32,000 nucleotides of DNA from assembly GCA_023898645.1 (NCBI GenBank), contig CP060232.1:1080001-1112000 (forward strand), in the 5' to 3' direction. The position numbers and the translations under genes are program-made. Shown piece after piece: positions 18,700 to 27,006 of the stretch. This DNA is from Candidatus Saccharimonadota bacterium (GTDB taxonomy: Bacteria > Patescibacteriota > Saccharimonadia > Saccharimonadales > Saccharimonadaceae). The notes below the pieces were generated by a model. The model searched no databases and had not been told where the DNA came from. It saw only the letters and a list, made by a program, of their open reading frames with translations. How positions within the stretch are numbered: position 1 is the stretch's first letter; each line of letters opens with the position of its first letter.

Positions 18700-19092
18700 C
18701 TATATCGCAACTTTGGCTGCAATTGCCGCAAGTTCATCATGGTTCGGCTCGGCACTCATATCTGCCTGACCACGGTACTCGCTAACATTAGTAAATGGAA
18801 TTAGCTGCACATGTGCATGTGGCACGTCTACACCGATAACTTGCACGCCAACATAGGGAACGTTCATCGCTTCGCGCAACCTTGTAGCAACCTTTTTTAC
18901 AGTAGCCATCAATTGCTGATAGTCTCCGTCTTCGAGATCCCATAAAAACTCAACCTGTTTTTTCGGAACAACTAACGTATGACCCGCAACAAGAGGATGT
19001 ATATCTAAAAACGCATAGGAATTGTCGTCTTCATACACCTTATGACTTGGTAGTTCGCCTTTGATAATTTTCGTAAAGATTGAATCTTGCAT
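18700..19092 (-). CDS. HIT-family nucleotide hydrolase/transferase
   Basis: IFTKIIKGELPSHKVYEDDNSYAFLDIHPLVAGHTLVVPK, and a triad region VPHAHVQLIP (an H-x-H-x-Q variant). I chose the start at 19092 because TGGTATAAT-6 nt-ATG lies upstream. The stop abuts the rlmH start. Confidence 0.88.
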   Translation of the reverse strand: MQDSIFTKIIKGELPSHKVYEDDNSYAFLDIHPLVAGHTLVVPKKQVEFLWDLEDGDYQQLMATVKKVATRLREAMNVPYVGVQVIGVDVPHAHVQLIPFTNVSEYRGQADMSAEPNHDELAAIAAKVAI

Positions 19093-19098
19093 ATTCTC

Positions 19099-19107
19099 AT
19101 TATACCA
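19099..19107 (-). promoter_or_regulatory. Extended -10 promoter for the HIT-rlmH operon (leaderless)
   Basis: On the minus strand: TGGTATAAT, then 6 nt, then ATG(19092). Confidence 0.6.
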
Positions 19108-19164
19108 ACCTGGGTGTATGATGTGGTCAGCTTCGTTCACATATTCATAACCAGAACGGAAAAA

Positions 19165-19428
19165 ATGCCTGAGCAACATGTCGATTACAGAGATTTGGCT
19201 CGAGAAAAGAAACTCGAGGTCTTAGATAGCCTAGCTCACATGGCCATAAATATCGTTGCACGACACCCGGACATACTCGAGAACTCACTGCTTCAAGCGA
19301 TGGCACACAAGCACAACTATGGCTACGTTGCCTGCCTTGGACTGTTCCATGCAATCAAACAAGGTAAAATCATCCGGCGAGATGATGGCTATCATGCTCT
19401 GTTGAGAGTCGCACAGGAAGACATATAG
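19165..19428 (+). CDS. Hypothetical small protein
   Basis: 87 aa from the ATG at 19165; the ORF is open from 19087. No motif recognised. Confidence 0.4.
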   Translation: MPEQHVDYRDLAREKKLEVLDSLAHMAINIVARHPDILENSLLQAMAHKHNYGYVACLGLFHAIKQGKIIRRDDGYHALLRVAQEDI

Positions 19429-19485
19429 TAAGCCAATCGTCTAATCTGTTAAAATATTTGGAGCAACTTGTTGCAATCCATCTAA

Positions 19486-19573
19486 GGAGAGGTGCAGGAG
19501 TGGTTGAACTGGCCGCTCTCGAAAAGCGGTATGGGGCAACTCATCGAGGGTTCGAATCCCTCTCTCTCCGCCA
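19486..19573 (+). tRNA. tRNA-Ser (anticodon CGA), class II with a long variable arm, CCA encoded
   Basis: Acceptor GGAGAGG/TCTCTCC, anticodon stem CCGCT/AGCGG with loop CTCGAAA, T-arm GAGGG-TTCGAAT-CCCTC, then GCCA. A long hairpin terminator lies at 19575-19611. Confidence 0.9.
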
Positions 19574-19640
19574 TGAGAAAATGACTGGGCCTGGCGTCTA
19601 GTCTTTTTCTCATACTTGGGGTTTGAACCATCGGCGGTTC

Positions 19641-20054
19641 TCACAAATCTGTTAATCCATTGTCTGCTGCGAATTGTTCACCCTCAAGAATGCGCGTCTC
19701 TGCTTCTATTTCTTTAAAATAAGTATCTTTTACATCTTGGCTCAAATCTTCCATAATCATGCCTAATCCCGCTAGCCTATCATGCGCGTCGTTACAATCA
19801 GCCAAATACTCATTGTCATATGATTCTCGTTTATCATGATTCGCGATATGCTGTAATCGCGCCTCTGCAATTGCGACGTCCTTTATCGCGTGCATGTCCA
19901 TGGCCGTACGCACAAGACCAAGGTAGTCTTTGTCTTCATACAGTCCAAGGGCTACATAGACAAGACCGTCTGCTATAGAAATGTCACTTTCGCCATTAGA
20001 AAAGAGTTCTTTGAGTTCATGTACCGTTGGAGTTGGCACCTCATGTTTTGACAT
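19641..20054 (-). CDS. Hypothetical protein
   Basis: 137 aa. A consensus promoter lies directly upstream (20061-20088). Confidence 0.55.
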   Translation of the reverse strand: MSKHEVPTPTVHELKELFSNGESDISIADGLVYVALGLYEDKDYLGLVRTAMDMHAIKDVAIAEARLQHIANHDKRESYDNEYLADCNDAHDRLAGLGMIMEDLSQDVKDTYFKEIEAETRILEGEQFAADNGLTDL

Positions 20055-20060
20055 GGAAAT

Positions 20061-20088
20061 ATTTTATCATACAAATATAATTTGTCAA
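20061..20088 (-). promoter_or_regulatory. Sigma-70 promoter placing the TSS at the start codon (leaderless)
   Basis: On the minus strand: TTGACA-16 nt-TAAAAT-6 nt-ATG(20054). Confidence 0.65.
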
Positions 20089-20132
20089 GAGAGCTAACTT
20101 TAGCATTATTGCATCTTCAAAAGAAAAGACCC

Positions 20133-20169
20133 ATCGAAATGAGTCTCTTTTTTTGGTACACCCGATACG
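20133..20169 (-). repeat. Duplicated 3' end of tRNA-Arg (16 nt identical) plus a degenerate copy of its downstream hairpin
   Basis: TGGTACACCCGATACG at 20154-20169 is identical to 20333-20348. The preceding 25 nt match 19/25 with 20308-20332, including the hairpin. Confidence 0.8.
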
Positions 20170-20224
20170 GTATCGGCTAAAGCCTCCTCCGCTCGTTTGC
20201 TCAAGAAAATGCCACGCGCTTTCT

Positions 20225-20270
20225 TTCGCTTCACTCGCTACGCCGAACGTACTTTTGCTACGCAAAAGCT
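20225..20270 (-). pseudogene. Decayed tRNA-Arg-like fragment (anticodon arm to acceptor 3' strand)
   Basis: By-eye alignment to the intact tRNA-Arg. The 10-mer CGAACGTAC(G/T) is shared. GCTTCACTCGCTACG matches GTACACCCGATACG at 11/15. TTTTGCTACGCAAAAGC aligns with TTTGGCTCCGCAAGCCAA. No acceptor pairing remains. Confidence 0.4.
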
Positions 20271-20332
20271 ATGTTCAAATACGCAAGCAAATTAACCAAG
20301 TAAAAACGGCCATAGAAATGACCGTCTTTACT

Positions 20333-20409
20333 TGGTACACCCGATACGATTCGAACGTACGACCTTTGGCTCCGCAAGCCAACGCTCTATCCAGCTGAGC
20401 TACGGGTGC
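20333..20409 (-). tRNA. tRNA-Arg (anticodon GCG), CCA encoded
   Basis: GCACCCG-TA-GCTC-AGCTGGATA-GAGC-G-TTGGC-TTGCGGA-GCCAA-AGGTC-GTACG-TTCGAAT-CGTAT-CGGGTGT-ACCA. Confidence 0.9.
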
Positions 20410-20485
20410 ATACAGGCCTAAGGCCTATTGAACTTACCAAGTTTACCATAAATCTACAGAGGTGGCAAGGAGCAGTGTATTCCTT

Positions 20486-21190
20486 TTACAGTCGGAGCAT
20501 GCGTACTATGCGATCTATCATGTCCAAGTGCAGCTCTTTCATAGGTAGGCGAGAACCAAGCATGTCTACAATTGCCTCACCAGATTCCTCGGGGAAATAA
20601 ACTGTTATACCTGGTTGAAAACGTTGGGTTGGAATCAACATAACCGAAAATTCCTCGCCGTCACGTATAATTCCAAATGATTTGAAGTTGTCAAAATTAT
20701 GCAGTGTACTGTCTATAGTTAGACCATCGTCGTCAATGGTATACGTCAGTTCATGCGGTGGGCGTCGTGAATAAACGACAATGACAAATGCAATAACGAC
20801 AATCAGTACAGTAAACGACCATGCTTGGGTCCACACTGAAATCCCGCCCAAAATCACGATTACAGCGGCGAATAATGAAAACCATCCCGCACCTTTTTCA
20901 TGATGAATATACTCCTGCGCAGTCCATGTAACGGGTTCGCTTGATGGCTCTTCTTCGTCATAATACTCATCATCATCTTCTGGGTCGGAATCTGGATTCG
21001 GCTGAGATTCGACAGTTGGTAGTGAGGGTGGAGCGCTTTGATTAACAGATGGCTCGTCTAGAGCAGCCTGCAAGGCAGCCGGGTCCACAATGGATGACTG
21101 CACGTTACCATCAACTTGCGGTAAAGATGTCGGTTGCCCAGGTTGATCCTGATCGGGTTGATAAAACCCCTGTTGATCGTTCGGTTGCAT
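20486..21190 (-). CDS. Membrane protein with a Q/P/D-rich N-terminus, two TM helices and a C-terminal soluble domain
   Basis: 234 aa. TM segments WFSLFAAVIVILGGISVW and FTVLIVVIAFVIVVY. TGCTATACT-6 nt-ATG lies upstream. Confidence 0.6.
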   Translation of the reverse strand: MQPNDQQGFYQPDQDQPGQPTSLPQVDGNVQSSIVDPAALQAALDEPSVNQSAPPSLPTVESQPNPDSDPEDDDEYYDEEEPSSEPVTWTAQEYIHHEKGAGWFSLFAAVIVILGGISVWTQAWSFTVLIVVIAFVIVVYSRRPPHELTYTIDDDGLTIDSTLHNFDNFKSFGIIRDGEEFSVMLIPTQRFQPGITVYFPEESGEAIVDMLGSRLPMKELHLDMIDRIVRMLRL

Positions 21191-21268
21191 GGTTACAGTA
21201 TAGCATGAGCAAGATAAATTTCACTGTCTCTGTGGCTATTGAGGCCTTCCGTAACTTTTGCCAAATGA

Positions 21269-21317
21269 AAAAGAGATGCAGCCGCATCTCTTTTTCATTT
21301 GGCGGAGGAGGGAAGAT
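21269..21317 (-). repeat. Distal direct repeat (attR-like): 3'-terminal 18 nt of tRNA-Ser(GCT) plus its 31-nt downstream hairpin
   Basis: Positions 21269-21312 are 44/44 identical to 23871-23914. After one mismatch, 4 more nt match. The repeat contains TGGCGGAGGAGGG, the complement of the tRNA 3' end. Confidence 0.85.
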
Positions 21318-21501
21318 GTCGGCTCAAGCCCCCATGTTCACTTGTTCAAAAAAGTAACCCCGTTACTTCCTTCGCTTCGTTCACTACATCAAATTCCTAC
21401 TTCACCCCACTTGTGGTATGTTCTGTGAGCTCCAACAACTCCCAAAGCCATTAACTATCTCTATACCAAATATTACATTCAATATACAGTACAATAATTG
21501 C

Positions 21502-21840
21502 ATGGAAGCAATAAAAAGTCTCAATATAGCCATCAGATTTTTGCTAGAAATCTGCCTGTTGATTTCTGCTGGGTACATCGGCTACAAATTAACTAATATA
21601 CCTTACGTAAAATATGGCTTAGCAATCTCTATTCCCATATTAGTAGCCTGCATTTGGGGAATATTCATTGCACCAAAAGCGAGTTATCTACTTAACGTGC
21701 CGTACAGGATCTTCGTCGAAATCGTTTTGTTTGGACTAACGTGCGTTCTTCTAGCACTATATGGAAAGATTGGACCTGCAATAGCCCTGGGGTTGGCTTT
21801 CAGCGTAAATGAAATGTTATTACTATACTGGAAACAATAA
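21502..21840 (+). CDS. Small 4-TM membrane protein, YrdB/DUF2568-like
   Basis: 112 aa from the ATG at 21502 (MEAIKSLNIAIRFLLEICLLISAGYIGYKL...). The stop abuts the ATG of the next gene (TAAATG). Confidence 0.55.
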   Translation: MEAIKSLNIAIRFLLEICLLISAGYIGYKLTNIPYVKYGLAISIPILVACIWGIFIAPKASYLLNVPYRIFVEIVLFGLTCVLLALYGKIGPAIALGLAFSVNEMLLLYWKQ

Positions 21841-22290
21841 ATGGAATTGCCTGAAAACGCTCCTGTACGGCGCAGACAAAGCATCGAGGTGTATGCCTCG
21901 GTGCATCTTGTGTGGTCCCTAATGTCAGAAATTGAACAGTGGCCCAAGTGGAATACCGACATAAAATCGGCGCGTCTACTAGGTAATCTGCGACCTGGAA
22001 CAACGTTCAAATGGAAGGCAGGTCCTGGAACTATCACATCTACAATTGAAGCGGTAGAACCGGAAAAGATGATTGGTTGGTCTGGAAAACTTCCGGGTAT
22101 TTTAGCCGTGCATATTTGGCGAATTGAAGGTAACAACAAGAAAGTTGTTGTTACGACCGAGGAATCATGGAGCGGAATCGTCCCAAAGTTATTCAGAAAA
22201 TACAGCGAACAGACGCTTGAAAAAGCGATTAACGACGGGTTATTGCTACTGAAACACGCTGCAGAGAATCAATATCATAGTCATTCATAA
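21841..22290 (+). CDS. SRPBCC-superfamily (polyketide cyclase/dehydrase-like) ligand-binding protein
   Basis: 149 aa. SIEVYASVHLVWSLMSEIEQWPKWNTDIKSARLL...TFKWKAGPG...IEAVEPEKMIGWSG is typical of Polyketide_cyc2-type SRPBCC proteins. Confidence 0.75.
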   Translation: MELPENAPVRRRQSIEVYASVHLVWSLMSEIEQWPKWNTDIKSARLLGNLRPGTTFKWKAGPGTITSTIEAVEPEKMIGWSGKLPGILAVHIWRIEGNNKKVVVTTEESWSGIVPKLFRKYSEQTLEKAINDGLLLLKHAAENQYHSHS

Positions 22291-22345
22291 ATATTCGAAG
22301 CTAGAAGTGTGACCGCTCCTCATTACGTACACCCGTTGTCCTGTT

Positions 22346-22954
22346 TTATCGAATAAATCTCAGCGCAGGAATTATTAAAAGCCAGCTAAATTTTGCTATA
22401 TCAGCATTAAATAGAGCAATCACTATCGAGATCAAAAATATAGCACCCATCGCTAAAGAACTGAATAGGCCGTTACGTATAGTCTGCTCTGCAATATTCG
22501 CACTAAGAAACTTCTTTTTTACGGCATATTGCCAACTCACAAAAGAAATCAATTCAATAACAACGAACGTTGACGCATACAATATCGTGGCCACTTTAGT
22601 GTCTGATTCACTCAATAGAGCTGTTGGGAACGGAATAAATGCGACAAAAAGCAATAAGACAAGATTCGACATCATAAAAACTCGGTCATATTGCACAAGA
22701 GCACGGTATTTTCTTACGTGTACCGACCAGATTGCACCAATGACAAGAAAGCTCAATACATAGGAAAAGAAACTGGGGATTATCGCTATAAGACCGCTCA
22801 GCACTGATGATTCAGAACTAAGGTCAACGTTTTCGGGTAAATGAATTTCAAGCGCAAGCAAGGTGATTGCGATTGCAAATACGGCATCACTGAAGAATAC
22901 GAATCTATCCACCCCTATTCTTGTCTGTTCCTCTGCAGATAACGACATCGACAT
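22346..22954 (-). CDS. TMEM175/DUF1211-family putative potassium channel
   Basis: Signature RFVFFSDAVFAIAITLLALEI (R-x3-FSD-x3-A-x3-TLL) near the N-terminus, and six predicted TM helices. Confidence 0.78.
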   Translation of the reverse strand: MSMSLSAEEQTRIGVDRFVFFSDAVFAIAITLLALEIHLPENVDLSSESSVLSGLIAIIPSFFSYVLSFLVIGAIWSVHVRKYRALVQYDRVFMMSNLVLLLFVAFIPFPTALLSESDTKVATILYASTFVVIELISFVSWQYAVKKKFLSANIAEQTIRNGLFSSLAMGAIFLISIVIALFNADIAKFSWLLIIPALRFIR

Positions 22955-23772
22955 TAAGCAGCACTCCGGTACGTCAATTCTCGGTCTTTCATAACGGATT
23001 TATTAAATGCGCTCGTTCGTATAACGCTCAGAGCGACAACGACTTGAATCAAAACGAATAACCAAAATAGCGTTTTGTCACCGGACATAACGCCCGTATA
23101 TGCAATCGATACGTCTGTAACAGCGTGAAATATAGCAACTAATAGAACGCTGCCTCGAGAATTATTAAACACCCACGACGTAAGTATAGATGTCGCAATA
23201 GCGGAAATAAGAAAGCCCACAAATGGTAGATTTGCCTGAAACGAGTCCGCAATCATAAACAATGGTATGTGCCAAAGGCCCCAGAGCAGCCCTAAAATCA
23301 AACTTGCGTTTAATGGAGTAAACTTTTTTTGCAACCGTGGTAACGCAAAACCACGCCAAGCCGTTTCTTCTGTAATAAGAAACAACCACCATTCAATTAA
23401 GAAAACAAGAAGGAGGCTCGAAGTGGTAATATCTGTGGCAAAATGTTTATTTTCACCGCCAAACAGATAATATATGAGCAAAGCGACAATAGAAATTATC
23501 GGAACCACCACCAAAGAAATGACATACCAAACTGGTTTTACTCTGAATCGCACAAGTCGTTTCAATAAATCAATGACAGCCACCTTTCCTCCACTTAATG
23601 CCGCGACGCCATATGTCGCTATTGTTAAGCCGAACCAAAAGGCAAGTGACTGTGGAATGTGCCATGTCAATAACTTGTTTTGTTGCGCTACACTCGTGCC
23701 CCACACAAGCCATGGAAGCAAATAAGCCATCCCGAAAAAAATAATAAGTGGGTGTTTTTTTATTATGTTCAT
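22954..23772 (-). CDS. CPBP-family intramembrane glutamic endopeptidase (CAAX protease / Abi-like)
   Basis: Motifs EETAWRGF (EExxxR), LWGLWH and FHAVTD. The protein is polytopic. Its stop overlaps the start of the next gene (TAATG). Confidence 0.85.
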   Translation of the reverse strand: MNIIKKHPLIIFFGMAYLLPWLVWGTSVAQQNKLLTWHIPQSLAFWFGLTIATYGVAALSGGKVAVIDLLKRLVRFRVKPVWYVISLVVVPIISIVALLIYYLFGGENKHFATDITTSSLLLVFLIEWWLFLITEETAWRGFALPRLQKKFTPLNASLILGLLWGLWHIPLFMIADSFQANLPFVGFLISAIATSILTSWVFNNSRGSVLLVAIFHAVTDVSIAYTGVMSGDKTLFWLFVLIQVVVALSVIRTSAFNKSVMKDRELTYRSAA

Positions 23773-23870
23773 TCTTGATTTCCCTTATGTTACAACATTA
23801 GTATACACAAGTTTAAAATATGGGCTCAAGGCGGCTTGCTGGAGTTTAATCTGTCCGATTCGCCAAACAG

Positions 23871-23919
23871 AAAAGAGATGCAGCCGCATCTCTTTTTCAT
23901 TTGGCGGAGGAGGGGAGAT
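23871..23919 (-). repeat. Proximal direct repeat (attL-like) overlapping the 3' end of the intact tRNA-Ser(GCT)
   Basis: See 21269-21317. Confidence 0.85.
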
Positions 23920-23994
23920 TCGAACTCCCGCTACAGGTCTCCCCGTACTAACGATTTAGCAAACCGTCCCCTTCAGCCACTTGGGTACTCCTCC
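23902..23994 (-). tRNA. tRNA-Ser (anticodon GCT), class II, CCA encoded
   Basis: Acceptor GGAGGAG/CTCCTCC, anticodon stem ACGGT/ATCGT with loop TTGCTAA, long variable arm, T-arm GGGAG-TTCGAAT-CTCCC, then GCCA. Confidence 0.9.
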
Positions 23995-24092
23995 GTATTT
24001 GGCTTGAAATATTGCTCTCGCAATTCCTTGGGACTCGATAGATTATAGCATAGTGTAAGGGGTCGGACTAGCCCTTGTGTGTTCTACGTCTA

Positions 24093-24121
24093 TTGACTTT
24101 ATGCTTATTTATTGGTATAGT
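24093..24121 (+). promoter_or_regulatory. Sigma-70 promoter placing the TSS at the start codon of pilin paralog P1 (leaderless)
   Basis: TTGACT-17 nt-TATAGT-6 nt-ATG(24128). Confidence 0.65.
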
Positions 24122-24127
24122 ATTAAT

Positions 24128-24550
24128 ATGAAGACAAAGGTTTTCTTGGGAGTACCAATCATTGCTACTATTTTGGTGGCTAGCTTAGTATTTACCCAAG
24201 ATACTCATGCAGTTAGCCTCAGTATATCTGCCGGCGCCAGTGCTGCAAAGGGTACGGATCAAGCAGCTAATTTATTCGGTCAGACAGGTATGTTTCGTAC
24301 TATAACCAACGTACTGCTATATCTCATTGGTGCCATAAGCGTCATTATGCTTATCATAGGTGGACTACGATACGTTGTGTCTGGTGGAGACAGTACTGCC
24401 GTACAAAATGCGAAAAATACGATTCTTTACGCCATTGTCGGTATCGTCGTTGCAATTTTGGCATATGCTATCGTCAGTTTTGTTATTTCATCGTTCACAG
24501 GAGTAGGTGGCGGAGCTGGTGGTGGTGGAGTTGCGCCGACTAATACGTAA
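24128..24550 (+). CDS. TrbC/VirB2-like T4SS pilin-family protein, paralog P1
   Basis: Signal peptide MKTKVFLGVPIIATILVASLVFTQDTHA, then the two-helix core NVLLYLIGAISVIMLIIGGLRYVVSGGDSTAVQNAKNTILYAIVGIVVAILAYAIVSFV and a Gly-rich tail. It resembles the Pfam T4SS_pilin family as I remember it. Confidence 0.8.
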   Translation: MKTKVFLGVPIIATILVASLVFTQDTHAVSLSISAGASAAKGTDQAANLFGQTGMFRTITNVLLYLIGAISVIMLIIGGLRYVVSGGDSTAVQNAKNTILYAIVGIVVAILAYAIVSFVISSFTGVGGGAGGGGVAPTNT

Positions 24551-24700
24551 TTATTTAAGTAATGTATGTAAACTTTTCCAGCATTTCGCTACACTGCGCC
24601 GAAAACTCATAGTTGCATCGGCTAAAGCCGCTGCCCGCAAGCTCTAATCAAGCCCGAACAGACAAGAAAATAGACCAGGCATTTGCCTGGTCTATTTTCT

Positions 24701-24788
<88 letters not shown>

Positions 24789-24830
24789 TTGTTAAAATGT
24801 GCTTCAGCAATAATAGCAGATTTACCCCTG

Positions 24831-25499
24831 TTAGTCGAGAGTTTGACGACTAATTGAGGCAACCCAAACCTTACCAGCACCAGCATCAAGTAAAGTCTGG
24901 GCTGCGTATTTCACGGTCGCCCCAGTTGTAATGACATCATCTATAAGTAGATATGTTGCATTTGGATCTAACTTTTTACGGCAGACAAATGCAGACTTTG
25001 CTTGTGACACACGCTCCCGCACTCCCATGCCGCGCTGTGTTGTATTTGTAGCACGACTCAGCGACAAATCGACAGACAGCTTTCGTAAGCCACTAAACTT
25101 TCGCGCTACTAATAGCATGTGGTCGTAACCCCTTTGGCGAATATGAGAACCAACTGTAGGTACGGGAACAATAATTGTATTTTTCGGTAATTCAGGCAAA
25201 TGGGAATGAAGTAGGTCAGCGAGCGGGCCATGTGCTGCTCGCGTGTTACTAAACTTGAAGTCATTTATCAGACTTTCAAGATGATCACGACGGTCGGCGA
25301 CACACCAGGCGCGCTCATATGGCACACGACATACTCCACATAAACCACTTGCTGGCGCCAGTTGCTTGCCACAGCCCACACACGCAGAGAAAGGTTCGCT
25401 TATGATGTCATATTTACAATTATCACATAGCATGGTGCCAATTATTCCGCATCCGGAACAGTGGTGGGGAGCGATAATTGATAGTAGTTGGTCAATCAT
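24831..25499 (-). CDS. comF: ComF-family competence protein (phosphoribosyltransferase domain with N-terminal Cys-rich zinc-ribbon-like region)
   Basis: CSGC...CDNC and CVGC...CGVC pairs, plus the PRTase motif YLLIDDVITTGATV. Confidence 0.85.
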   Translation of the reverse strand: MIDQLLSIIAPHHCSGCGIIGTMLCDNCKYDIISEPFSACVGCGKQLAPASGLCGVCRVPYERAWCVADRRDHLESLINDFKFSNTRAAHGPLADLLHSHLPELPKNTIIVPVPTVGSHIRQRGYDHMLLVARKFSGLRKLSVDLSLSRATNTTQRGMGVRERVSQAKSAFVCRKKLDPNATYLLIDDVITTGATVKYAAQTLLDAGAGKVWVASISRQTLD

Positions 25500-25604
25500 T
25501 GTGATTTTTACGTTTTGACGGCTTGTCCGGTTGATTATATCACCGCTACTGGTTATACTGTAGGGGACAAGTTGTCAAGAGCCTAGAGAAAGTGGAGGAT
25601 ATTT

Positions 25605-26072
25605 ATGGCCCGCAAACAAAATACCAATGACGATCTATTGATCGAAGACGAATTGGCCGCCGCATTCCTGAATGACGACGATCTTTCAAGTAACGCCGAT
25701 GATGGCGGTGTCGTCATGCATGATGACGAACAGCTTGAAGACGATTTTCCAGGACAGTTGGCAGTCGATGTATACGAAACCGAGGATAAGCTGGTTGTTA
25801 AAGCCCGCACAGCCGGTGTAAACAAAGATGAGCTAGACGTCAGTATATCTGACGGCATCCTAACAGTCAGCGGTACGCTGAGCAGTGGTGATGACGCCGA
25901 TGTTAATAACTGGCACATTCAAGAATGCTACTGGGGCGAGTTTAGTCGTACACTAGCACTTCCTGTTGCCGTTAAGGAAGATGAAGTAGAGGCCGTCTTA
26001 AAGGATGGTGTTCTAACCATTACATTTAGCAAGGTTAAGCAAGAACACGCTAAGAAAATTCAGGTTCTGTAA
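25605..26072 (+). CDS. Hsp20/alpha-crystallin-family small heat-shock protein
   Basis: The alpha-crystallin domain runs from LAVDVYETEDKLVVKARTAGVNKDELDVSISDGILTVSG to FSRTLALPVAVKEDEVEAVLKDGVLTITFSK. A GGAGG SD lies 8 nt upstream. Confidence 0.9.
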   Translation: MARKQNTNDDLLIEDELAAAFLNDDDLSSNADDGGVVMHDDEQLEDDFPGQLAVDVYETEDKLVVKARTAGVNKDELDVSISDGILTVSGTLSSGDDADVNNWHIQECYWGEFSRTLALPVAVKEDEVEAVLKDGVLTITFSKVKQEHAKKIQVL

Positions 26073-26133: not shown

Positions 26134-26553
26134 TTACTGGCCGCTAGTGAAACTTGAGACAACAAAGTTGACTACAGCGTAGGCGAGAATAGCAACGACC
26201 ACACCGACAATAGCATAAAGAATCGTATTTTTCGCATTCTGCACAGCCGTACTGTCGCCGCCAGATACAACGTAACGAATACCGCCGATAATAAGCATGA
26301 TCACACTAATTGCGCCAATGAGGAACAATAGCACGTTGGTAATGGTACGGAATATACCACCCTGGCCACCTGTACCAAAGAGAGTAGACGCGTCACCCTG
26401 CTGGTCCTTGCCCTGTGCAGCTCCTGCGCCGTCACTTAGTCCTTGGTTGAATGATGCGTGCACGGGAACAGGTTGCGCGAACAGACCAAAGCCCAATACC
26501 AATGCCGGTACGACAAGCGCCGCCGACAGAAGTTGTTTGATTTTACTTTTCAT
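26134..26553 (-). CDS. TrbC/VirB2-like pilin-family protein, paralog P2 (closest paralog of P1)
   Basis: Signal peptide MKSKIKQLLSAALVVPALVLGFGLFAQPVPVHA. The core NVLLFLIGAISVIMLIIGGIRYVVSGGDSTAVQNAKNTILYAIVGVVVAILAYAVVNFV is present. The ORF is open to 26568, but the second ATG has the better AAAGG SD. Confidence 0.8.
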   Translation of the reverse strand: MKSKIKQLLSAALVVPALVLGFGLFAQPVPVHASFNQGLSDGAGAAQGKDQQGDASTLFGTGGQGGIFRTITNVLLFLIGAISVIMLIIGGIRYVVSGGDSTAVQNAKNTILYAIVGVVVAILAYAVVNFVVSSFTSGQ

Positions 26554-26625
26554 GTATGAACCTTTCATTTTGATTACTTTACTACTTTTATACCAGATGA
26601 CGGGAGTTTTGTTAAGTGCTAACCA

Positions 26626-27006
26626 TTAACTTTTAAACGCACCGAGAACGAAGTTGACGATGGCGTACGCTAAGATAGCGACAACTAAACCAATAACCGC
26701 ATACAGCACAACGTCCTTTGCTGATTTCACTGCTTGCGCGTCACCGTTACTCGTCGCGTAACGAATACCACCGATGATAATCATTATGACCGCAACAGCA
26801 CCCAAGAGAAACAGGAGTACGTTCACGACTGTTTTAATTTTATCTTGAAGATCTTGCGTACCTGTCTGAGTACCGCCAACAGACGTAACTCCGCCTTGTA
26901 TGCTATCAATTGGGCTTTGGGCTAAAACAGTTGAAGGCAACAGTGGTGCTGTAGCCAATCCAACTGTTGTCATAATGCCGAGAAGTAGTGTACGTAGTTT
27001 ATTCAT
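26626..27006 (-). CDS. TrbC/VirB2-like pilin-family protein, paralog P3
   Basis: Signal peptide plus core NVLLFLLGAVAVIMIIIGGIRYATSNGDAQAVKSAKDVVLYAVIGLVVAILAYAIVNFV. A TAGGAG SD is present. Confidence 0.8.
   Translation of the reverse strand: MNKLRTLLLGIMTTVGLATAPLLPSTVLAQSPIDSIQGGVTSVGGTQTGTQDLQDKIKTVVNVLLFLLGAVAVIMIIIGGIRYATSNGDAQAVKSAKDVVLYAVIGLVVAILAYAIVNFVLGAFKS

Follow-up and report, generated by a model that had tools for sequence, protein, structure and literature searches.

At least 18 of the 44 tRNA genes (~40%) in a Saccharibacteria genome are followed by a non-coding module of ~180 bp, named here the RtT-like tRNA-trailer module, which is best read, with a probability of about 0.45, as a non-autonomous DNA module that inserts at the T-loop/3' end of tRNA genes and rebuilds the end of the gene. 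The window, that is, the whole stretch of 32,000 nt that was analyzed, comes from Candidatus Saccharimonadota bacterium (GCA_023898645.1, CP060232.1, positions 1,080,001–1,112,000, forward strand), and holds modules behind tRNA-Arg(GCG), tRNA-Ser(GCT), and tRNA-Ser(TGA) (Table 1). We found no description of such modules in Saccharibacteria in the literature.

Read in the sense of the tRNA, the tRNA gene is followed by a bidirectional terminator, a degenerate antisense copy of the tRNA 3' third, a small hairpin, a sense copy of nt ~47–57, the core, a sense copy of nt 59–76, and an older terminator; the same size and internal order recur in more than 40 copies. The core is a conserved cassette of 75–90 nt that is built of hairpins, lacks terminal inverted repeats, joins at T-loop position 58, and is always preceded by the same T-loop tetranucleotide (TTCR). 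The last 17–20 nt of the tRNA stand as direct repeats on both sides of the module and the gene is regenerated, as at the borders of tRNA-integrating islands, and the inner and outer terminators of the modules differ. In all full copies, the inverted T-arm copy and the sense copy of nt 47–57 form a stem with each other, and the outer stem of the hairpin H2 follows the T-stem of the adjacent tRNA, whichever tRNA that is, in all copies. Clear pairing of the antisense arm with the 3' end copy is limited to a subset of the modules, among them those of Gln and Glu. In the Phe copy, the second junction is located in the anticodon arm, itself a natural palindrome.

Table 1. Features of the three module loci in the window (positions in the window; T, terminator).
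Feature	Position	Strand	Basis or remark
Older terminator-like hairpin T0'	20120–20153		Now separated from tRNA-Arg(GCG) by the module; 80% identical to the tRNA-adjacent terminator
Second copy of tRNA-Arg(GCG) nt 61–76	20154–20169	-	16/16 identical to gene end 20333–20348
Core cassette, Arg copy	20170–20243	+	R1 95.5 bits, E 3.6e-25
Direct copy of tRNA-Arg nt 49–57	20244–20252	-	Exact 9-nt match, positions 50–58 of the 77-nt gene
Apical hairpin and inverted T-arm copy	20252–20283		Read from sequence; fold has the stem on both strands
Bidirectional intrinsic terminator T1	20295–20336		Terminator scan: 19 pairs then T-run, - strand
Intact tRNA-Arg(GCG)	20333–20409	-	ARAGORN; Rfam tRNA model 65.6 bits
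Second copy of tRNA-Ser(GCT) terminator and nt 59–76	21257–21317	-	61-nt direct repeat, 92% identical to 23859–23919
Core cassette, Ser(GCT) copy	21318–21391	+	R1 67.2 bits, E 1.1e-16
2.4-kb cargo, Ser(GCT)	21392–23834		Open reading frames; Pfam matches
Right end of Ser(GCT) module	23835–23904		Read from sequence; comparable to complete Ser(GCT) modules of relatives
Intact tRNA-Ser(GCT)	23902–23994	-	ARAGORN; Rfam tRNA model
Partial rearranged module behind tRNA-Ser(TGA)	24573–24703		Read from sequence; compared with units of relatives
Intact tRNA-Ser(TGA)	24701–24788	-	ARAGORN; Rfam tRNA model

At tRNA-Arg(GCG), the second copy of the gene end spans the acceptor 3' strand, the T-stem 3' strand, and CCA, and its identity with the gene ends in the T-loop. 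The adjoining core holds a mini-hairpin P1, which contains a 12-mer (20173–20184), and a long irregular hairpin H1 with its apex at 20203–20225; these hairpins are supported by covariation across 48 copies. The direct copy that follows consists of the T-stem 5' strand and the 5' half of the T-loop and, together with a small conserved apical hairpin (20252–20268) and the inverted degenerate T-arm copy (20270–20283), forms H2. The stem of T1 takes in the ACCA end of the tRNA, and T1 has sequence in common with the terminator of the tRNA-Met module at genome position 157408. On the far side, T0' resembles, by eye, the terminator that abuts the tRNA directly in two relatives with an empty site (L047 and L051). 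Among the relatives, this site is empty in three, carries diverged variants in four, and has other content in several, and in some a different cassette lies in the same slot; such alternation of occupied and empty sites is a mark of tRNA-integrating elements.

The Ser(GCT) copy carries its cargo between the core and the inverted T-arm copy. The core contains a one-letter variant of the 12-mer (21319–21330) and a replacement hairpin (21352–21368), and the right end contains an inverted degenerate copy of the tRNA 3' third (~23839–23866) and a terminator T1. The four cargo genes are DUF2568, SRPBCC, TMEM175/DUF1211-like, and CPBP/Rce1-like, with no recombinase among the open reading frames and Pfam matches of the 2.4 kb. 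Behind tRNA-Ser(TGA), the partial module gives no match to R1, the covariance model of the core. Its right core half (24573–24603, ~31 nt) is identical by eye to a Ser(GCT) module of another species, the 12-mer hairpin (24618–24629) occupies the usual place of the small apical hairpin of the T-arm stem, and an inverted degenerate T-arm copy (~24633–24660) and a terminator T1 are present as well.

The first-pass annotation had proposed a recurring 12-mer at three tRNA-associated sites, and the 12-mer and its variant indeed begin at 20173, 21319, and 24618, all on the + strand, with three matches in the window against 0.22 expected (0 of 100 shuffles reached three) and seven in the whole 1.13-Mb genome. 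The motif had been placed where the identity of a duplicated tRNA end stops. It begins 3 nt past the 16-nt exact copy of the tRNA-Arg(GCG) 3' end and 1 nt past an 18-nt copy, with one mismatch, of the tRNA-Ser(GCT) 3' end (21300–21317), and in the 15 well-kept copies it abuts the end of identity 17–20 nt from the CCA end (mode 18). The reported likeness of the flanks was borne out, the Arg and Ser(GCT) modules of ~78 nt being 65% identical in the model alignment and their similarity being above background (local alignment z = 5.9; 1 of 1000 shuffles as high). A hairpin kept in the same relative position with a different sequence had also been described, and across the 48 copies it is 93% paired with 11 of 14 pairs changed on both sides. 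The third site belongs to the family as a partial, rearranged copy. The 12-mer itself is one variant of the variable mini-hairpin at the junction edge of the core.

All 18 cores found by R1 in the genome (strong match, E below 0.01) are located 3' of a tRNA gene and run antisense to it, so that the tRNA association, which a genome-wide scatter of the motif was to have overturned, held in 18 of 18 strong matches. The distance from the gene end is ~70–270 nt for 15 of them, and the other three are displaced by an identifiable later insertion; in the relatives, most cores lie 71–112 nt from the tRNA 3' end. Across the genus, copies occur in 20 of 22 genomes behind ~20 different tRNAs, with the number per genome ranging from 0 to 10. 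Cores at different tRNAs are 94–96% identical between species and a neighboring gene ~70%. In the Leu(GAG) module of one relative, the inner segment is of the Leu(CAG) type and the outer fragment is specific to Leu(GAG), and therefore the inner part moves with the module and the outer fragment derives from the target. A metagenome scan gave distant relatives only (at most 68% protein identity). R1 matches outside the order had no adjacent tRNA and are probably due to chance.

In the insertion that we favor, the module would enter the tRNA gene at T-loop position 58/59, bringing its own terminator and a replacement for nt 59–76, so that the tRNA gene would stay intact while the 18 nt of its original end, with the old terminator, would come to lie beyond the module. 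Such a Campbell-type insertion via the 3'-terminal identity block would involve a putative excised or circular intermediate and an enzyme acting in trans, for which the five tRNA-end-specific large serine recombinases, the Xer-like tyrosine recombinase, and the three HUH proteins of the genome are candidates; plain homologous recombination is a further candidate mover. Gene conversion or palindrome correction may keep the tRNA-matching hairpin matched to its neighbor. The strict tRNA linkage, the 3'-end repeats, the resemblance of T0' to the empty-site terminator, the turnover in copy number, the near-identical cores across species, the Leu(GAG) chimera, and the Ser(GCT) cargo all argue for insertion. 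The same is true of the canonical A-tract/stem/T-tract terminator that separates the tRNA from the module in every copy, and of the Arg copy, in which a promoter scan found no promoter-like site. Against insertion, none of the ~100 copies in 23 genomes has a linked recombinase gene, the cores are conserved about as well as the tRNA genes and have covarying hairpins, and the RtT unit of E. coli, which has the same layout, is annotated as a processed RNA. Recent spread would account for the conservation and covariation of the core, but selection acting on a folded single strand would do so equally well. The insertion reading also leaves unexplained how the 3' end and the T-arm hairpin come to match each new tRNA, since simple recombination onto a different tRNA would give a chimeric, dead tRNA.

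To our knowledge, the RtT repeats of E. coli tyrT, although long known, have no accepted origin or function and have passed for a peculiarity of one locus. We examined the 178-bp repeats of tyrT-tyrV (RF00391, rttR) on NC_000913. Their layout matches that of the Saccharibacteria modules. A unit of ~180 bp lies directly 3' of the tRNA gene, and at its border the last 19 nt of the E. coli tRNA are repeated, with identity ending in the T-loop. A hairpin-rich cassette, of 67 nt in E. coli, sits at that stop and is followed by the T-loop 5' half and T-stem 5' strand in direct copy, with the T-arm in inverted copy next to them; no recombinase gene is linked in either case. However, the E. coli repeats are in tandem and confined to one tRNA-Tyr locus, whereas the modules are single copies behind at least 18 different tRNA genes; no intrinsic terminator lies between tRNA and unit in E. 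coli but one does in every copy here, and the antisense acceptor part, degenerate in most copies here, is well preserved in E. coli. The annotation of E. coli lists one unit as RttR, a processed small RNA that ends at the CCA of the copy, and in the Rfam RtT model an outer helix joins the antisense piece to the copy of the 3' end. According to one preprint (10.1101/2024.07.17.603846), how rttR acts is still unknown.

These parallels suggest the main rival, a possible but less probable one, which takes the module for a functional RNA of the RtT kind. Transcription in the tRNA sense would start at an unrecognized promoter or continue through the terminator from the tRNA gene; in the transcript, the antisense arm would pair with the sense copies, and trimming would occur at the CCA of the copied tRNA end. 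Made one per tRNA, this RNA would mimic the acceptor/T-arm end and might serve as a decoy, a sensor, or a processing element. The strong hairpin covariation and the near-identity of the cores across species agree with such an RNA, as does the predicted sense-strand fold of the Gln copy, which is closed by pairing of its two ends, and the small structured RNA that the first-pass annotation had offered as an alternative gains from the RtT parallel. The terminator ahead of every module and the lack of a promoter-like site in the Arg copy speak against it. Folding gives weak z-scores (-1.5 to -2.1) that do not differ between the strands, G-U versus A-C counts show no strand preference, and the RtT-type outer helix is often poor because the antisense acceptor part is degenerate. 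Moreover, neither model crosses between the two systems: RF00391 has no match in 19000–26000 (E up to 1) or at four other module loci (E up to 0.1), with a gathering score of 45 bits and 133–137 bits for the E. coli units in the same library, and R1 has no match in E. coli. Rfam returned only tRNAs and sub-threshold noise for 19000–26000 of the window and those four loci, with no family for the module. Alignments of the core to tRNAs and to the E. coli cassette scored at background, and descent from either was rejected.

The first-pass annotation had suggested that the motif might be the conserved arm or end of one family of tRNA-targeting elements. One family at many different tRNAs was upheld, but no integrase-bearing element was found with it: among ~100 copies in 23 genomes, none has a linked recombinase gene, and none is an autonomous relative with the same ends or an internal integrase. 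In its strict form, in which the modules are decayed integrase-bearing islands and the motif an attachment-site arm, this reading is improbable. As in tRNA islands and cis-mobilizable elements, tRNA-3'-end repeats form the borders, the tRNA-side gene end differs from the displaced one, and presence varies between relatives; such direct repeats are the classical island footprint, the Ser(GCT) copy keeps 2.4 kb of accessory genes, and the genome has five active, tRNA-targeting islands with large serine recombinases. Unlike islands, the modules are ~180 bp, without genes or integrase, and constant in hairpin order, a uniformity that is unlike random decay. They contain the T-arm of their target in inverted form, and one core stands behind ~20 different tRNAs. 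The serine recombinase islands join at the CCA end rather than in the T-loop, with different ends and junctions, and where island and module share a tRNA the island is located between the tRNA and the pre-existing module. The one integrase adjoining a module, in the relative G015, belongs to a separate event that split the tRNA at the anticodon loop. Most genomes of the genus have a single tyrosine recombinase, which is Xer-like, and the single reverse transcriptase of the genome lies within a tRNA-Trp island without a link to the modules.

Movement of the core as an IS200/IS605- or REPIN-type single-strand DNA element by three HUH Y1 proteins is very improbable; its target would be the T-loop of hairpin-forming tRNA DNA, 3' of TTCR. 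The modules share with such elements short, non-coding, hairpin-built, long-kept repeats without terminal inverted repeats, and the covarying hairpins, the constant T-loop tetranucleotide, and three IS200/RAYT-like HUH Y1 (Y1_Tnp) genes in the genome are in keeping with them. However, the small hairpins that flank the Y1 genes differ from gene to gene, have only 3–4 genomic copies each, and are unlike those of the modules. The modules are strictly tRNA-linked with target-derived flanks, and they are divided 9:9 between tRNAs running with and against replication, without strand bias, though this mode of transposition depends on the lagging-strand template. Nor would the mechanism be expected to leave an 18-nt direct repeat, and no TnpB/Cas12f-like or IS110-type genes were found in the genome. 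Least credible is an in situ by-product without a mechanism of its own, in which the template would switch by snap-back, once at the terminator and once at another palindrome, and give a direct-inverted-direct triplication of the tRNA 3' third (a tandem inversion duplication), later homogenized by gene conversion; the sense/antisense/sense order, the palindromes at both junctions, and the Phe junction agree with it, but the shared conserved core and the same T-loop nucleotide at ~20 tRNAs in many species are left unexplained.

A bolder proposal, which we consider unlikely, is that every module supplies, as an encoded product or directly as single-stranded DNA, a mimic of its own tRNA's acceptor/T-arm end. 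A target-templated process would write the sequence of the adjacent tRNA into every new copy, and the genome would carry a set of RtT-like molecules matched to its tRNAs one by one. If this were true, the E. coli RtT would be the lone known relic of a widespread class. The RtT layout stands behind ~40% of the tRNA genes of a 1.1-Mb genome instead of at one locus, and the dozens of copies in the genus vary informatively in tRNA, empty sites, exchanged cassettes, and a copy with cargo, so that the question, a selfish element that repairs the gene it hits versus an RNA that mimics the tRNA end, can be approached by comparative genomics and by simple experiments with cultivable Saccharibacteria. 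In genome annotation, it would be wrong to take duplicated tRNA ends like these for the scars of lost islands.

The 12-mer TCGGCT(A/C)AAGCC, which the first-pass annotation had reported as recurring at tRNA-associated sites, is real: counted with its one-letter variant, it is found three times in the window against an expectation of 0.22, and no shuffle reached three. The 3′ end of tRNA-Arg(GCG) is duplicated exactly over 16 nt, and one motif lies 3 nt past this duplicate. Another lies 1 nt past an 18-nt duplicate of the tRNA-Ser(GCT) end, and the proposed likeness of the modules flanking these two was borne out by alignment (65% identity, z = 5.9). The complete genome, of which the window is a part (1,134,346 bp, 46.7% GC, 44 tRNA genes), holds seven matches. 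When the copies were aligned, the 12-mer turned out to be just one form of a mini-hairpin, P1, that varies between copies; others have small unrelated hairpins or short direct repeats in that place. The conserved part of the module is a core of 75–90 nt, made up of two hairpins, P1 and the long irregular H1.

We searched the genome with R1, a covariance model of the core, and counted 18 copies at E-values below 0.01. The linkage to tRNAs holds genome-wide, as each of the 18 cores is antisense to a tRNA gene and lies on its 3′ side, the tRNAs ahead of them being Met (two), Arg (three), Pro, Gln, Phe, Gly, Tyr, Leu, Ser, Glu (two), Asn (two), and Lys (two). A weaker match (E = 0.2) follows the second tRNA-Gln, and truncated module remnants are found behind four more tRNAs, namely Leu(GAG), Ser(CGA), Ser(TGA), and possibly His. 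Three cores are distant from their tRNA: those of Pro(TGG) and Glu(CTC) because a 6-kb large-serine-recombinase island lies between tRNA and module, and that of Ser(GCT) because the module contains 2.4 kb of cargo. Modules at tRNAs running with and against replication are split 9:9; therefore, their orientation follows the tRNA and not the replication fork.

The order of parts is identical in every full copy. Read in the tRNA sense, the intact tRNA is followed by a bidirectional A-tract/stem/T-tract terminator, the stem of which includes the tRNA's ACCA; a degenerate copy, in antisense, of nt 76 to about 46 of the tRNA; a small conserved hairpin; a sense copy of nt about 47–57; the core; a sense copy of nt 59–76; and a second terminator, unlike the first. 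The 3′ third of the tRNA is thus present in three copies (sense, antisense, and sense), and the core divides the last of these right in the T-loop. Among 15 well-kept copies, drawn from 10 genomes, the outer fragment loses tRNA identity at 17–20 nt counted from the CCA, most often at 18. The antisense T-arm piece pairs with the sense one into a stem that varies with the tRNA and has its best match in the neighbouring one.

The layout is identical to that of the E. coli tyrT units. On the antisense strand, the 178-bp E. coli unit opens with the 3′ end of tRNA-Tyr, copied over 19 nt up to a point in the T-loop, and continues with a 67-nt hairpin cassette, a direct copy of the T-loop and the 5′ strand of the T-stem, and an adjacent inverted T-arm copy; one of these units has been annotated as a small RNA, RttR, which terminates at the CCA of the copy. 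None of the Rfam families matched the module, and sequence similarity between the E. coli repeats and the modules was absent in both directions; hence, the modules are RtT-like in build and stand outside RF00391.

Coordinates of module-related sites and neighbouring genes (window positions unless stated otherwise)
Feature	Position	Observation
12-mer, tRNA-Arg(GCG) fragment	20173	
12-mer, tRNA-Ser(GCT) fragment	21319	
12-mer, third site	24618	
Module copy at third site	24573-24703	Truncated and rearranged; 12-mer hairpin apical in the T-arm-piece stem
Site behind tRNA-Ser(CGA)	19574-19640	Terminator, then short T-arm-like palindrome resembling the modules' inner hairpin, no core; probably a module remnant
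Three paralogous genes around tRNA-Ser(TGA)	24130-24550, 26134-26568, 26626-27006	Small secreted membrane-anchored proteins; common conserved C-terminal hydrophobic segment typical of TrbC/VirB2-like pilin proteins
Island by tRNA-Pro(TGG), 6 kb	L003:2676-8386 (genome 261175-266885)	AAA_15 ATPase, ThsB-like TIR protein (Thoeris-like defence), 607-aa large serine recombinase with reading frame crossing the terminator and reaching the 3′ end of the tRNA; of the antisense tRNA end, the far junction retains just the initial 7 nt
Four further large serine recombinase genes (L005-L009)	genome 380068, 601566, 786674, 1021774	Three adjoin and converge with tRNA-Gly(GCC), tRNA-Trp, and tRNA-Glu(CTC); Glu(CTC) element has internal inverted repeats (175 nt perfect, 105 nt 97% identical) that include its own junction sequences
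HUH Y1 paralogues (L100-L102)	genome 54853, 682137, 812490	About 200 aa; short GC-clamped palindromes of their own, two upstream and an inverted one downstream, no more than 3-4 copies per genome
Reverse transcriptase	genome 633789	
tRNA-Trp 3′-end copy, 15 nt	genome 636100-636330	36 kb downstream of tRNA-Trp, a different long hairpin ahead; a serine recombinase and the reverse transcriptase in the interval
Module behind truncated tRNA-Leu(TAG), relative G015, contig 2	L097:8800-10450	tRNA copy truncated in the anticodon loop; intact tRNA-Leu(TAG) 350 nt off in opposite orientation, tyrosine integrase gene nearby; apparently an integration or inversion within the anticodon loop

We tentatively read the module as a non-autonomous DNA piece that inserts through the 3′-terminal identity block of a tRNA gene, with a probability of roughly 0.45. 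This reading is favoured by the direct repeats, the difference between the inner and outer terminators, the empty sites, and the cargo-bearing copy, and also because a terminator insulates the module from tRNA transcription. Among the relatives, the orthologous tRNA-Arg(GCG) site is empty in three, where the terminator is similar to this genome's outer one; it carries diverged modules in four and a convergent gene in others. The weak point of the model is that the match of each copy to its own tRNA is left unexplained.

The main rival, possible but rather doubtful, is that the module is a functional RtT-like RNA, for which conservation, covariation, and the E. coli precedent speak. Cores of different species at different tRNAs, such as Asn and Ser(TGA), are 94–96% identical, compared with about 70% at the DNA level for an adjacent protein gene. 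When 48 cores, taken from 23 genomes, were aligned, 93% of the cells paired, against 46–60% in slid-partner controls, and changes on both sides occurred in 11 of 14 pairs, although its fit to the model biases this alignment in favour of the structure. Such an RNA is made less likely by the terminators, by the absence of a promoter-like site within the Arg copy, and by the missing strand signal: counts of G-U versus A-C singled out no strand, and the predicted folds were just mildly better than shuffles, to an equal degree on both strands.

Less likely, the modules would be decayed islands, would have been moved by HUH-driven single-strand transposition, or would be the product of in-situ template switching. 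Five large serine recombinases are encoded in the genome, four of which abut tRNA 3′ ends, along with a single Xer-like tyrosine recombinase; no module copy is linked to a recombinase, and the first-pass annotation's suggestion of a conserved arm or end of tRNA-targeting elements was not supported in so far as these would bear an integrase. The three IS200/RAYT-like HUH genes each possess flanking hairpins of their own. The genome encodes one reverse transcriptase, and no TnpB or IS110-type genes were found in it.

In the genus, R1 matched 20 of the 22 other genomes, at 0–10 copies per genome, and, elsewhere in the order, a few genomes belonging to other genera and families were matched as well; in a phylum-wide sample, only same-family matches showed the canonical tRNA linkage. 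The relatives' core matches lie mostly 71–112 nt from the 3′ ends of about 20 tRNA species, and the core subtypes at one and the same tRNA differ between species. At tRNA-Arg(GCG) in one relative (locus L062, G010 contig 4), an unrelated 78-nt hairpin cassette fills the core's slot, with the tRNA-end copy on one side and the T-loop copy on the other, so the slot takes more than one cassette family.

If the module is an inserting DNA piece, it would supply the tRNA gene with a new end and a new terminator. In one relative, the Leu(GAG) module combines an inner segment of Leu(CAG) type with a Leu(GAG)-specific outer fragment, a mixture which indicates that the inner part is carried along by the module and that the outer fragment derives from the target.
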